Shown piece after piece: positions 491-63,318 of a stretch of DNA of 64,000 nucleotides. This DNA is from a virus: IMG/VR virus record IMGVR_UViG_3300027749_000044, one strand, 5' to 3'. The notes under the pieces are model-generated. The model did no database searches. It was not told where the DNA came from and worked only from the letters and a program-made list of their open reading frames with translations. The first letter of the stretch is position 1; each line of letters begins with the position of its first letter. Both the position numbers and the translations under genes were made by a program.

Positions 491-954
491 TCAATACATT
501 ATTTGGGGAAGAAAAACAAAAGGTCGAAATACAAGAAACAGCAAAAGTTGAAAAGGCTAAGCCATGGGATTATACGAATGCGATCTATCAACATAAGCAT
601 TTAATCAATGAATCTGTAGATACTGAGGCAGCCGAAAAAGAATATAATGCATATTTTACAAATCAACATTTTTCTTTTTTCGTTGGTACAGTATTTTATG
701 CTAATGAAATGAATAGAAATTATAATATATCGAAGAAAATGCAATTCGATTATTATTTCAATTCTATACGTAAACAAAGACCTAACTTCATTAAACTACC
801 CAAACGCGAACAACCAGAGTCTATTGACTCGGTAAAAGAATTCTATAAATACAACGACAAGCGCGCACAAGAGGCACTGTCTCTTTTGACCGATGATCAA
901 ATTGTAACTATAGAAAAAAAGCTCGCAAAGGGTGGAGTAAGAAATGGACGATGA
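487..954 (+). CDS. 62: Clamp loader small subunit
   Basis: YNAYF..FYANEMN..MQFDYYFNSIRK..VKEFYKYN..A.EALSLL motifs; 44-62-regA synteny. Confidence 0.88.
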   Translation: MINTLFGEEKQKVEIQETAKVEKAKPWDYTNAIYQHKHLINESVDTEAAEKEYNAYFTNQHFSFFVGTVFYANEMNRNYNISKKMQFDYYFNSIRKQRPNFIKLPKREQPESIDSVKEFYKYNDKRAQEALSLLTDDQIVTIEKKLAKGGVRNGR

Positions 955-1360
955 TTTATTCAGTGGAGTTGGTGTAGAAGTCACCCTTAATGACCGTGAT
1001 GCGTTTCTCAAGGTAAAAGAAACATTGACGCGAATTGGCGTTGCATCCAAAAAAAGCAAAACGTTATATCAATCTTGCCATATTTTACATAAGCAAGGCA
1101 GATATGTAATTTTGCATTTTAAAGAACTTTTCATTCTCGACGGCAAAGATTCTGATTTTTCAGAAAATGACGTCGCCCGTAGAAATACAATTGTAAAACT
1201 TTTATCTGAATGGGGTCTAGTGAATATCATTGATCCTATAGAAGATGATGAGCCAATTGCCCCTATTTCTCAAATTAAAATTCTTCCGTACAAAGAAAAA
1301 CCAGATTGGGAATTGATCGCAAAATATCAAATTTCAGGTGGTGACAAATCAAAAAGGTAA
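944..1360 (+). CDS. regA: Translational repressor RegA
   Basis: FLKVKETLTRIGVAS..LYQSCHILHKQGRY.I.HFKELF signature. Confidence 0.95.
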   Translation: MDDDLFSGVGVEVTLNDRDAFLKVKETLTRIGVASKKSKTLYQSCHILHKQGRYVILHFKELFILDGKDSDFSENDVARRNTIVKLLSEWGLVNIIDPIEDDEPIAPISQIKILPYKEKPDWELIAKYQISGGDKSKR

Positions 1361-1366
1361 TATATT

Positions 1367-1747
1367 ATGTCAAATTTTGAAAAAGTAAAAACCTTTCATG
1401 CTATTTTTGGACAAAAAGATCCTACAGAAGCAACTTGGCCTTCGAAAGAAGTAATTAAGTTGCGTATTGCTCTTATTGTCGAAGAGTTAAATGAACTAAA
1501 GGATGCAATTAAAGATAAAGATATGATTGAAGTCGCCGATGCACTTACTGATATCTTATATGTGACTTATGGTGCCGCGGCCACATTTGGAATTAATATT
1601 GATGAATGTTTTTCTGAAGTACATAGATCAAACATGAGCAAACTTCAGCCAGATGGCACAGTAAAACGCAGAGAAGATGGTAAAATCCAAAAAGGTGAAA
1701 ATTATTCTCCTCCAGATCTTAAGCCAATCGTATATCCAGTAAAATAA
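1367..1747 (+). CDS. MazG/HisE-like nucleoside triphosphate pyrophosphohydrolase
   Basis: LIVEELNEL..EVADALTDILYVTYG..EVHRSNMSK motif. Confidence 0.85.
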   Translation: MSNFEKVKTFHAIFGQKDPTEATWPSKEVIKLRIALIVEELNELKDAIKDKDMIEVADALTDILYVTYGAAATFGINIDECFSEVHRSNMSKLQPDGTVKRREDGKIQKGENYSPPDLKPIVYPVK

Positions 1748-40960: not shown

Positions 40961-41277
40961 TCAATGGTTGTAAACTAAACTATTAAAAGCTGGGCAACAC
41001 GGGAGTGCGAATCTCCCCGCCTCCACCAAAGGTACACAGCCGCAACAGGTCTTGATGGGGCTATAAGCCAAAGTAGAGTGAAAGCCTCTACCTGTGTATC
41101 TTTGTTGGGGGCGAATAGAATCGACTGACAGTTAGTAGATAGAATAGCAACTCGGGTAGTTCCGTTAATGACTAAAAACTGTAAATGTCGCAGCTAATGA
41201 CAACACTGTGGAATTTGCTCTAGCAGCATAATCTACACGGGCTTTGCAAGTTGAGCCTCGGAACAGAATCAACTTGC
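40961..41277 (+). ncRNA. ssrA: Circularly permuted two-piece tmRNA
   Basis: Acceptor piece ends CGCCTCC-A-CCA (41018-41028); coding piece starts GGGGGCG (41107) giving G3:U70; tag ORF 41190-41231 AANDNTVEFALAA*; 3' pseudoknot; ACTAAATA upstream; 5' end approximate. Confidence 0.9.
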
Positions 41278-44671: not shown

Positions 44672-44746
44672 GGCCCTGTAGCTCAATGTTAGAGCAAACA
44701 ATTCTAAACTGTTAGGTTGTGGGTTCAAGTCCCACCGGGGTCGCCA
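44672..44746 (+). tRNA. Amber suppressor tRNA (CUA)
   Basis: aacaa-ttCTAaa-ctgtt arm (A31-C39 mismatch), normal D and T arms, G73, CCA. Confidence 0.78.
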
Positions 44747-60764: not shown

Positions 60765-61145
60765 TTATTCCAAAAATCCTTGCCCGGTGGCGAATTTTCT
60801 CATAATTATGCCGGCGAGCGCATTGGCTTCGTTTTCATGGTCAGAACCGGTGACGCCAGATTCCGAGTGCAATTCATTGTTAAGATTTTGGCGATGGTGA
60901 ACGAATTCGTGGGCCAAAGTCCTGAATGTATCCATAATATGCCGGCCTTTGGTCGAAATAGTAATGGTTTCATCCATAGGAGAATATTGACCGAATGTTG
61001 GAATCCGTCCAGGTAAATGCGAATCTGTTTTAATTATGATTTTAGGTACTGATTCCAAACCAAGTTCTTTTGCCGCAAATTTTGCGAATAAATCGATTTG
61101 CTCTTTTACTTTTTCTTCATTGAGATAAGAAAGATAAGATTTCAT
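60765..61145 (-). CDS. HExxH metallopeptidase-like putative internal head protein
   Basis: MKSYLSYLNEE; RTLAHEFVHHRQ..ENEANA.AG. Confidence 0.75.
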   Translation of the reverse strand: MKSYLSYLNEEKVKEQIDLFAKFAAKELGLESVPKIIIKTDSHLPGRIPTFGQYSPMDETITISTKGRHIMDTFRTLAHEFVHHRQNLNNELHSESGVTGSDHENEANALAGIIMRKFATGQGFLE

Positions 61146-61777
61146 TATTTTTGCCTTTGAACTGTTCTGATATGAGTTTCCCCAGTATCGTGGTTGTGAT
61201 CCACATGATGAGCCACAAAATTTACATGTGGATGTTCATCTTTTAATGACAAAAACTTTTGAAGATTTTCGTGGGAGTCATCATATAGATGGACTTCCTT
61301 ATATCCGTGTTTCTTAACTAAATCTGATACAATTTTTTTCTTAGTATCGGAGGGCCGGCCTGGATTATTACCGGCCCTCCGGACGTGGATTTTATTAATG
61401 TCTATACCATAACTTTTCATAAAATGACCAAACTTTTCTTTCGAATCAAAGTCTGATCTAGCAGTCAATATTTCAGTCTTTCCGCCATTTCTATGTATCG
61501 CCTTCATTTTCGCTAACATTTTGCGAATAGGACGAGCAGTCTTATGTAATTTTTCGGCGGATTTAAAATCAGAGAAGTCATAAGAATGACCGGGTTCTAA
61601 TGTATGTGTATTGAATTCTTGATTAGTGAGCGATTGTACTTTTTTACCAGTTTCGTCTTTTACATGTATCTTTAATTTTTTAGGATCATGTGCAAACAGT
61701 GTTTCATCCATATCAAAAGCATGGAGAGTTTTGTGTTTTTTTTCTTCTTCGGATAGAAATATTGAATAAGAAAACAT
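61145..61777 (-). CDS. HAD-superfamily hydrolase, His-rich
   Basis: FDMDETL, ILTAR, K, YDDS..NL; MFSYSIFLSEE; TATAAATA at 61798-61805. Confidence 0.8.
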   Translation of the reverse strand: MFSYSIFLSEEEKKHKTLHAFDMDETLFAHDPKKLKIHVKDETGKKVQSLTNQEFNTHTLEPGHSYDFSDFKSAEKLHKTARPIRKMLAKMKAIHRNGGKTEILTARSDFDSKEKFGHFMKSYGIDINKIHVRRAGNNPGRPSDTKKKIVSDLVKKHGYKEVHLYDDSHENLQKFLSLKDEHPHVNFVAHHVDHNHDTGETHIRTVQRQK

Positions 61778-61860
61778 CAATTAAACCTTTTTAAGTTTAT
61801 TTATATTTTCTTATCCAACTCGGGATTCACACCAATAACTTTGGTATTTCTACCTAAACT

Positions 61861-61946
61861 TGGACCCCGCTTGGGATTTTCACCCCAGATTGGTCGACGG
61901 CCGCGGGGCCACAGCCGATCTTATTACGCTCCAGACTTACGGGGTC
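61861..61946 (-). ncRNA. Degenerate tRNA-like RNA (His-like)
   Basis: gaccccgt/gcggggtc 8-bp closing stem, D- and T-like arms, GTG in a poorly formed anticodon arm. Confidence 0.4.
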
Positions 61947-61966
61947 ATCGCCCTGCGGGAGATATT

Positions 61967-62042
61967 TGGTCTCCAGCCCTGGCGCTGCCCCAGGTTCACG
62001 GCCTTCCAAGGGCCGTAGTAATCTTGCCCTACTTCGCCAGAG
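61967..62042 (-). tRNA. Non-canonical tRNA-Pro (UGG)
   Basis: C1:G72, A73, CCA, cggcc-cttggaa-ggccg; T-loop GGCAGCG and G8 are atypical. Confidence 0.7.
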
Positions 62043-62601
62043 ATGAATTATATTTAGTATATAGGTAATTATCTATAATAGGCTGAATTTCGTTTTTATA
62101 TCTACTATGTACGTATTGATGGTGTGTTGGACATAAAGGCACTATATTTTCTGGTCTATTATCAGTATGATCTTCGTTTACATGATGGGCCGCAACAATT
62201 TTTGTTTCATCACAGACTAAACATTTTTTACCATGTTCCGAAAAACATATAGATTGGTAGTTATTTCCATTCCAGTTGCCATTTTTTGCACCCGATCTGA
62301 ATAGTTTATTGGAACATGCATGTGAACAAGTTTCTGTATTTTTATAATACACGGTTGCACAAACAACACATTCTTTTCTATTTGCATCTAGAAAGGAAGG
62401 ATTTAAATTACACGAATTAATATGTTTTTTAAAATTTCCTTTTGTAAATCCAGAACCACAAAACTCACAAAAAAACTTTGTATTATTGATAAAATCAAAT
62501 CCACTTGATTGTCTATTTGGATTTAACTTGCAAAGTCTTTCATGATTTTTTATCGAATTTGTAGTATTACATTCCTTATTGCAATATATACATTTATACA
62601 T
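62029..62601 (-). mobile_element. HNH homing endonuclease with zinc fingers
   Basis: Multiple CxxC; CLVC..AHHVNEDHTDNRPENIVPLCPTHH..H. Confidence 0.85.
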
Positions 62602-62631
62602 AGAGTTCTCCTTTTGGGTATTTATGTCCCG

Positions 62632-62945
62632 AAAGATTTACCCTACCTTAATTCTACGGCTGGCTGGTCTTTACATACCACCATTCAAATCACTGTCACC
62701 TGGCACCATCAGGTTCAAAGCCTGAGCTACCGAATGGGGGTTGGCCACTCATTGGTGGGGTCCATTCTTGGTCGTGTTTCACCATTTTGCTTTTGGGGTA
62801 GGATTTGCACCTACGTTTTTCCAGTCGGAGTGTCCTGCCTTTTTAGACGACGGATCAATAGATCCGTCCAGTTGGCTACGCTGGCATTTTCTCCCGTCGG
62901 AACGTCCTCGGCTTTTTAGACGACCCAAAATCTCTCGTTCAACTC
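62632..62945 (-). ncRNA. Compact GOLLD-like structured RNA with double tRNA-like 5' domain
   Basis: GC-richer non-coding block behind a TTGCCA promoter; motifs recalled from the GOLLD 3' domain; ends approximate. Confidence 0.55.
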
Positions 62946-62985
62946 ATATTCTTATCTTACAGGATATATATAGATTGGCAAGTGG

Positions 62986-63318
62986 TTATTTTAGTTTTTC
63001 CGGATCAAAATGACCATAAAAAATTTGAGCGGGTTCTTCCTGGCTTTTGCCATTGTAAAAATAACACACCCAAAGGTCGCCGGTTTCTTCGCCTTCGCCT
63101 TTAAGCACAAATACCGTTTCGGGATATTTAAGGCTAAATGCCTTCATATCCTTGTGCCAATCATACCATTTTGTTTCGCTTTTGGAAGTTCCATCTTCTT
63201 CCAGAGCCCAAGTTGCATTTTCACAATCACATAGGAGTTGCTCAATTACAGTTTCTGGCTCATAACTGGCCGTATTAGGTACGACCAGATCAAGTGAATA
63301 TCTAGTATAATAACCCAT
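62986..63318 (-). CDS. Conserved phage hypothetical protein
   Basis: MGYYT..KWYD..DMKAFS.KYP..F.L.GEGEE.GDLW..Y..GK. Confidence 0.75.
   Translation of the reverse strand: MGYYTRYSLDLVVPNTASYEPETVIEQLLCDCENATWALEEDGTSKSETKWYDWHKDMKAFSLKYPETVFVLKGEGEETGDLWVCYFYNGKSQEEPAQIFYGHFDPEKLK

Follow-up and report, generated by a model that had tools for sequence, protein, structure and literature searches.

We analysed a 64,000-nucleotide (nt) stretch of viral DNA (IMG/VR record IMGVR_UViG_3300027749_000044; hereafter the window), in which a 314-nt element at positions 62,632 to 62,945 had been read from the letters alone as a compact GOLLD-like RNA with a 5' domain of two fused tRNA-like elbows (the original prediction). 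The element lies on the minus strand, in a 384-nt gap between an upstream open reading frame (ORF) of 110 amino acids (aa) at 63318-62986 and a downstream ORF of 190 aa (Table 1). GC content at the locus is 0.47-0.52, compared with ~0.25-0.40 in the flanks. The source is an uncultured T4-like phage of ~151 kb from lake metagenomes, and a 47-aa neighbour protein has its closest named relative in Caulobacter phage Cr30. The locus folds better than shuffled sequence (z = -2.5), a value that draws partly on foreign sequence from an HNH homing-endonuclease cassette inserted next to the element.

Homologs from metagenomes of lakes and ponds were collected by look-ups anchored on proteins and by a single pattern scan of a metagenome. 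Five further distinct versions were found, namely L060 (identical in sequence to L061), L072, L073, L068 and L078. The total came to four distinct sequences for the 5' part of the element (module 1) and six for the 3' part (module 2), all from one narrow clade. ORFs across the RNA region were not conserved, indicating that it is non-coding, and the alignments showed many indels of 1-2 nt; a 125-aa ORF picked on the opposite strand by one gene caller was not conserved in L060 or L078.

A sigma-70-type promoter aligned across six lineages and was nearly invariant. It lies ~25 nt upstream of module 1 and, where module 1 is absent, immediately upstream of module 2; transcription would start at this conserved site. 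In L073 and L068, the promoter is followed directly by ...CGCGGUGAAACACGG, with the entire ~165-nt 5' domain missing and module 2 kept. Judged by this comparison, the 314-nt element is not one RNA of ~310 nt, as had been proposed, and is instead two separable modules behind one putative promoter. In relatives free of the HNH cassette, module 1, module 2, a tRNA-Pro(UGG)-like gene and more tRNA-like elements follow one another head-to-tail with spacers of 5-10 nt, and the elements beyond the tRNA-Pro-like gene vary from lineage to lineage.

Table 1 Features of the locus, with positions in the window.
Feature	Position	Strand	Description
Sigma-70-type promoter	62954..62981	-	TTGCCA, 16-nt spacer, TAAGAT (window); TAGAAT in relatives; 9/12 matches in scan
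Module 1	62930-62791	-	~140 nt; two tRNA-like bodies predicted from RNAalifold and covariation
Acceptor-like closing stem	62930-62924 with 62797-62791	-	7 bp (base pairs), TTTTGGG/CCCAAAA
D-like arm 1	62921-62904	-	GUCU, loop, GGAC
Inter-unit "anticodon" helix	62902-62899 with 62822-62819 and 62894-62891 with 62830-62827	-	Pairs the repeat units; leads into the permuted body
T-like hairpin 2 (permuted body)	62884-62868	-	5 bp, CCAGG/CUUGG
Capped acceptor-like hairpin (permuted body)	62866-62851	-	6-7 bp, CGGAUC/GAUCCG
D-like arm 2 (permuted body)	62848-62832	-	Second GUCU/GGAC
T arm (proximal body)	62814-62798	-	Preceded by a 3-4 nt linker; loop UGCAAAU
Module 2	~62786-62658	-	Three-way junction; ~130-150 nt depending on lineage
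Helix P2	62772-62770 with 62700-62698	-	Closes the three-way junction; covaries (G-C to A-U, C-G to U-G)
P3	62767-62762 with 62737-62732	-	GAAUGG/CCAUUC; optional inner hairpin
P4 stalk	62731-62728 with 62705-62702	-	5-bp stalk; covaries (GGUA/UGCC to CAAUA/UAUUG)
tRNA-Gln-type anticodon stem-loop topping P4	62725-62709	-	UCAGG-CUUUGAA-CCUGA in the window
Nearly invariant 3' domain	62697-62658	-	Hairpin UGGUGGU/ACCAGCCA
HNH homing-endonuclease cassette	~62648-62043	-	~600 nt, inserted, outside the RNA; splits the row of RNA genes
HNH ORF	62601-62029	-	190 aa; stop codon inside the tRNA-Pro-like gene
tRNA-Pro(UGG)-like gene	61967-62042	-	Clean cloverleaf; G8, D-loop GGGCAAGAU, T-loop GGCAGCG, encoded ACCA end
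Third tRNA-like RNA	61861-61962	-	Acceptor-like stem, GC-rich hairpin in place of the anticodon arm, T-like arm, UCCA end; from sequence and comparison with L060/L073

Wider searches yielded no further carrier. Among 50,697 phage records, blastn with the region as query had no match, five DNA patterns run on IMG/VR returned nothing or just chance or tRNA-Gln matches, and a scan of genome contigs gave chance matches only. The neighbourhoods of 52 protein-anchored IMG/VR loci held no homolog, and neither module was present in four whole IMG/VR phage records, in T4 or in Sinorhizobium phage Phosso. Metagenome DNA contigs provided no new variant, just the joined form without HNH cassette. No cultured carrier of module 1 or 2 was found in these searches, Phosso having a relative of the tRNA-Pro-like gene only. 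Known RNAs were sought with Rfam 15 at the gathering score over the whole window and, with lax filters at E<=10, on 62300-63300, 60900-62400 and L060. The whole-window search returned a permuted transfer-messenger RNA (tmRNA) and four tRNAs, none of them at the locus, and ARAGORN added a fifth tRNA gene.

RNAalifold returned the same fold of module 1 from three and then from four sequences. The imperfect direct repeat of the original prediction (an exact stretch of 13 nt and one of 21 nt with 81% identity, at a spacing of 72-73 nt), the linker hairpin ACGGATC/GATCCGT and the closing stem TTTTGGG/CCCAAAA were recovered mechanically, and the T-like arm GTAGG-TGCAAAT-CCTAC was present as described. 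The stems exceed what chance would give, since compensatory changes occurred among the four distinct homologs at 4/7 pairs of the closing stem (UUUUGGG/CCCAAAA, UUUCAGG/CCUGAAA, AUUUGAG/CUCAAAU) and at 2/5 pairs of the T stem. In a plain alignment, 96.9% of 160 cells were paired and 9/40 pairs showed compensatory changes, a result matched by 3/500 shuffles, and slid controls paired in 30-56% of cells. An alignment fitted to the model, and hence biased towards it, gave 98.1% of cells paired, compensatory changes at the same 9/40 pairs and 2/500 matching shuffles (slid controls, 31-55%).

The original prediction had each repeat unit carry a local "stub" arm. The stub sequences are there, but they are better read as the two strands of a single inter-unit helix than as two local hairpins. 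This helix reads GGAG/CUCC in the window and L060, GAGG/CCUC in L072 and GAAG/CUUC in L078, and its duplex energy is -9 to -10 kcal/mol versus -0.1 to -7.4 kcal/mol for both local hairpins combined, which were energetically worse in 3/4 sequences. In L078, stub 1 would be left with 2 bp, whereas the cross helix is fully Watson-Crick there.

With this helix in place, two four-way junctions are predicted. The proximal one has the order of a tRNA cloverleaf, comprising the acceptor stem, UC at positions 8 and 9, the D arm, 1 nt, the "anticodon" stem, a short variable loop and the T arm. The distal one is a second cloverleaf with the order permuted, in which a variable linker of 5 nt is followed by a T-like hairpin of 5 bp, an acceptor-like hairpin of 6-7 bp capped by a loop, UC, the D arm and the shared helix. 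We model module 1 as a tRNA body whose anticodon stem runs into a second, circularly permuted tRNA-like body, and the covariation among homologs supports the idea of two fused tRNA-like bodies in the 5' domain. D-loop 2 and T-like loop 2 (window 62836-62844 and 62872-62880, minus strand) are complementary over 3 nt in every lineage (GGC/GCC, GGU/ACC, GUU/AAC). An elbow-like contact could form there, with register shifts in L072 and L078, but the signal is too weak to claim it.

The Rfam tRNA model (RF00005), which had been suggested as a check, gave the one relevant match at E<=10 with lax filters. It aligned with D arm 2, the stub and the T arm, scoring 17 bits on the window and 24.9 on L060, below the threshold of 29 and only by skipping the middle; ARAGORN called no tRNA at the locus. 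Module 1 has no anticodon loop. A covariance model built from module 1 matched genuine tRNAs at 28-35 bits, indicating that the outer shell of the module is tRNA-like.

The closest parallel to the distal body was found in YrlA (Y RNA-like A; Rfam RF02553), which has a circularly permuted tRNA-like domain whose T and D arms flank a loop-capped "acceptor" stem, and in which this domain is joined to the rest of the RNA via the equivalent of the anticodon stem (Chen et al. 2014, PMC4201824). The YrlA of M. smegmatis, with a 7-bp acceptor stem, is cleaved by RNase P and has CCA added to it (PMC4201824). The distal body of module 1 has exactly the same permuted topology, backed by covariation. Where YrlA has the Ro60-binding helix, however, module 1 has another tRNA body in normal orientation, and the T-like loop of the distal body reads NUARCMA, unlike a canonical T-loop. 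The RF02553 model gave no match at E<=10 in the window and L060, and no TROVE/Ro60 domain occurred in the precomputed Pfam calls ~3 kb either side of the locus (L054, L055, L078), a search that left out the rest of the 151-kb phage. Module 1 also resembles the tRNA-like domain of tmRNA, which keeps an acceptor stem and T arm and has a helix towards other domains where the anticodon arm would be, but module 1 lacks a tag reading frame and pseudoknots and has full D-like arms; the tmRNA model had no match at the locus. A YrlA-type permuted domain coupled to a normal tRNA body was found neither in Rfam nor in the literature searched.

Module 2 forms a separate three-way junction, in which all 30 counted pairs were kept in six distinct homologs. 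It has an anticodon arm but no cloverleaf, and no Rfam family matched it in the window or L060. At the tip of P4, relatives carry 17 nt (CCAGG-CUUUGAA-CCUGG) identical to the anticodon arm of tRNA-Gln(UUG) genes called by ARAGORN in unrelated phages. The loop of P3 is 3-5 nt long in L060 and L072, and the other sequences have a 20-nt insertion bearing a covarying hairpin (CCAC/GUGG to CUGC/GCGG). The motif "gagtggc", which had been counted as part of a conserved 3' region, is present in the window, but it falls in this optional insertion and is missing from L060 and L072. Two other pairings were considered for module 2 and set aside. A helix between UGAUUU and the spacer AAAUUA, proposed by RNAalifold, has 2/6 pairs broken in the window, and a local extension of the GUG-AAA-CAC hairpin, broken in 2/6 sequences, was judged less likely than the long-range P2.

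The U1-A72, G2-C71 and G3-C70 pairs with G73 at the end are shared by the tRNA-Gln of E. coli. The last 40 nt of module 2 can form UGGUGGU/ACCA(G)CCA followed by GCCA, resembling the U1-A72, G2-C71, G3-C70 and G73 end of T4 tRNA-Gln. The motif (A/G)CCA occurs three times at the 3' end of module 2. Since this leaves the register ambiguous, and since the window has GCCG here, we put forward the acceptor-like end as a hypothesis only.

The 3' limit of the conserved RNA was obscured by the HNH cassette. In L060, L073, L068 and L078, the conserved RNA ends with ...GACCAGCCAGCC AAUGAAAUUA and is followed directly by CUCUGGCGAAG..., the 5' end of the tRNA-Pro(UGG)-like gene. In L060, L061, L073, L068 and L078 the cassette is absent and module 2 lies directly against the tRNA-Pro-like gene, and a pond-metagenome contig also spans the insertion site without it; in L072, just the last ~52 nt of the HNH gene are left (85% identity). 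In the window the cassette sits exactly at the junction between module 2 and the tRNA-Pro-like gene, so that "agccgtag" and "gtagggta", both counted earlier as conserved, lie at or inside its leader. The first straddles the end of the conserved RNA, with its "gtag" not conserved in relatives, and the second is inside the 5' leader of the cassette and likewise not conserved. The conserved RNA therefore ends near 62658 and not at 62632, and the locus is an example of a homing endonuclease disguising the end of an RNA gene.

The leader of the cassette contains a hairpin and a late-promoter-like ATAAATA. The 190-aa ORF matched PHROG families of HNH endonucleases at E 1.6e-7 and Pfam HNH weakly. 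A structured region followed by an endonuclease ORF and a further GC-rich block is the layout expected of an ORF-bearing self-splicing (group I-like) intron. We regard this explanation as refuted, given that no intron model matched, no host gene is interrupted and relatives without the HNH gene have contiguous, independent tRNA-like genes with no ORF; moreover, the HNH stop codon lies within the downstream tRNA-like gene, as expected for a free-standing endonuclease gene. The GC-rich block after the 190-aa ORF had no Rfam match.

Other signs of a homing-endonuclease hot spot, which includes L072 525-795, were seen in the relatives. In L068, the upstream tRNA-Leu(CAA) is split by a different HNH gene (742-1410, minus strand), tRNA-Leu(CAA) of L073 contains ~50 inserted nt, and L072 holds a 5' tRNA-Leu fragment followed by another tRNA.

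These rearrangements raise the question of whether the modules are functionless remains of tRNA genes in decay, broken up as homing endonucleases repeatedly invaded the tRNA cluster and illegitimate recombination took place there. The HNH insertion in the window, the remnant in L072, the second HNH gene in L068 and the tRNA-Leu fragments or inserts in L072 and L073 all fit such decay, as do the absence of module 1 from two lineages, the drift of T- and D-loops from the tRNA consensus and a mismatch in the anticodon stem of the tRNA-Pro-like gene in L078. Against it, compensatory changes preserve nine stem pairs in module 1, along with the module 2 stems, while loops and linkers diverge by 15-25%, the optional inner hairpin of module 2 covaries too, the promoter is conserved, and pairing of 97-100% is not expected of pseudogenes. 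We consider it quite improbable that the modules are relics.

The assignment to GOLLD was attractive on general grounds. GOLLD RNAs are associated with phages and tRNAs and were first found in lake metagenomes, and the modules share this phage-borne, tRNA-associated, freshwater setting. The Rfam search, equivalent to the cmsearch test named with the original prediction, was silent for GOLLD (RF01998) throughout its scope, in the window as in the contiguous, HNH-free L060. Moreover, GOLLD RNAs measure roughly 600-800 nt, compared with ~140 + 135 nt here. Where GOLLD is one large RNA with a variable 5' and a conserved 3' half, the locus has two self-closing, separable modules (~140 and 130-150 nt), and the "conserved 3' part" of GOLLD named in the original prediction includes sequence of the HNH cassette. 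No match to ROOL, HEARO, OLE, YrlA, skipping-rope or introns was obtained in the window or L060 either. This corrects the family call, and the evidence favours the fallback given beside it, a new class displaying tRNA mimics.

An RNA that is GOLLD- or ROOL-like in spirit would be a different matter, in which the modules, the tRNA-Pro-like gene and the next tRNA-like element are domains of a single ornate RNA of >500 nt with an optional 5' domain and embedded tRNAs, forming one particle. The single conserved promoter, the lack of a terminator-like site between the elements on the coding strand, their head-to-tail arrangement with 5-10 nt spacers in HNH-free relatives and the lake origin shared with GOLLD would all agree with it. 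Yet each module is closed by its own terminal stem, module 1 is gained or lost as a unit, the downstream elements vary among lineages, a 600-nt endonuclease cassette is tolerated where module 2 meets the tRNA-Pro-like gene, and no GOLLD, ROOL or other large-RNA model matched, contiguous L060 included. We judge a single large RNA to be unlikely.

A parallel is provided by RNAC and RNAD of T4 (species 1 and 2 RNAs), stable RNAs with lengths of ~140 and ~120 nt whose genes belong to the tRNA cluster of T4, with the endonuclease gene segB beside them, and whose function is still unknown (PMC3014915, PMC9697503). The likeness is confined to size, position in a T4-type tRNA cluster by a homing-endonuclease gene and tRNA-like ends. 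RNAC ends in a canonical T arm and acceptor-like stem; it has one T arm and long hairpins, in contrast to the two tRNA-like junctions of module 1, and RNAD lacks the Gln-type anticodon arm of module 2. Covariance models of modules 1 and 2 (R1 and R2) had no match at rnaC or rnaD in either the T4 tRNA region or the whole T4 record.

Genes of RNA-repair type lie around the row. Upstream on the same contig, past the end of the window (L054 79-2260; L078 1-2821), we found RNA ligase (PF09414), HAD_PNKP, AAA and Gad2-like proteins. Downstream of the row, a PNK-like HAD protein (phrog_415; window 61145-61780, minus strand) is similar to polynucleotide kinase and HAD phosphatases.

On this evidence, we consider it fairly probable that the locus holds two independent, non-decoding tRNA-mimic genes, which stand at the front of a series of atypical tRNA-like genes in a T4-like phage of freshwater. 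The sigma-70-type promoter would drive the whole row, from module 1 and module 2 to the tRNA-Pro(UGG)-like gene and a CCA-ended tRNA-like gene, and the enzymes with which the host processes tRNAs would presumably release stable small RNAs from the precursor. Cleavage by RNase P would occur at the acceptor-like stems of 7 bp, and the 3' ends would then be trimmed and receive CCA, in parallel with T4 RNAC and RNAD, which are made likewise from the T4 tRNA cluster. Module 2 would display the tRNA-Gln(UUG) anticodon stem-loop on a stalk beside its invariant 3' domain. Neither module can decode. Their role is most likely the imitation of tRNA shape or of the Gln anticodon arm, and, in a conflict over tRNA damage and repair, they may be decoys or may assist a tRNA-binding enzyme as cofactors; the shapes, together with the RNA-repair neighbourhood, suggest tRNA mimicry.

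A bolder proposal, which we find conceivable but doubtful, is that module 1 belongs to a widespread, unpublished class of two-headed tRNA mimics of phages and that module 2 is a dedicated mimic of tRNA-Gln(UUG), based on the exact anticodon arm and perhaps on an acceptor-like hairpin (U-A/G-C/G-C) with GCCA after it. The two might then act together as decoys that shield the translation of the phage from host defence nucleases that target tRNAs, or as guides for the neighbouring RNA-repair enzymes.

Several points weigh against two selected, independent tRNA mimics. The statistics of covariation are weak because there are only four distinct sequences of module 1 and six of module 2 from one narrow clade. 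In module 2, compensatory changes fell at only two pairs, and support for its fold is accordingly moderate. The invariance of its 3' domain and of the tRNA-Pro-like gene could also stem from co-conversion during endonuclease homing and not from selection on the RNA. The elbow nucleotides of module 1 are not canonical throughout. Its T-loop is UGCAAAU in the window and UCCACAG in L078 (UUCAAAU in L060 and L072), and the GG typical of D-loops belongs to arm 2 in the window and L060 but to arm 1 in the other two, L072 and L078. Two lineages can dispense with module 1. We infer transcription, RNA ends, separate maturation and function of the modules from sequence, and no nuclease, synthetase or repair enzyme was directly tied to the RNAs.

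Phage tRNA clusters are usually viewed as helpers in codon usage, and T4 RNAC and RNAD have been without a known function for fifty years. The extra RNAs described here have a legible design, one with two tRNA bodies and no anticodon, the other with an isolated Gln anticodon arm. The covariation indicates that selection maintains the shapes of the modules, which points to tRNA mimicry at the level of RNA as a phage strategy. If the modules do act as decoys of tRNA-targeting defences, they would be an RNA counterpart of protein anti-defence factors.

The phage encodes several translation-related RNAs elsewhere in the window. The permuted tmRNA gene has two pieces (40966-41231, plus strand; 86.7 bits), and one tRNA, at 44672-44746 on the plus strand, carries the anticodon CUA of the amber suppressor type.

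Further atypical tRNA-like genes follow the modules in the row. The tRNA-Pro(UGG)-like gene is located 9-10 nt after module 2 in relatives and is identical in five lineages, and L078 shows the anticodon-stem mismatch; ARAGORN and the Rfam tRNA model both missed the gene. An unannotated homolog is present in the cultured jumbo Sinorhizobium phage Phosso (PV764938.1, ~427996-428053; L119 4001-4058), with compensatory changes in the anticodon and T stems, the T-loop GGCGGCG and an acceptor stem of 9-10 bp. L060 contains at 1928-1999 a tRNA-like gene with a 6-nt anticodon loop, which scored 29.2 bits on the tRNA model. Phosso also has an unannotated 78-nt tRNA-like gene between tRNA-Lys and tRNA-Leu (427818-427895; L119 3823-3900). 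Its acceptor, D and T stems are normal and it ends in ACCA, but the "anticodon" loop has 6 nt (ACGAAA) and the T-loop reads GUCAAAA.

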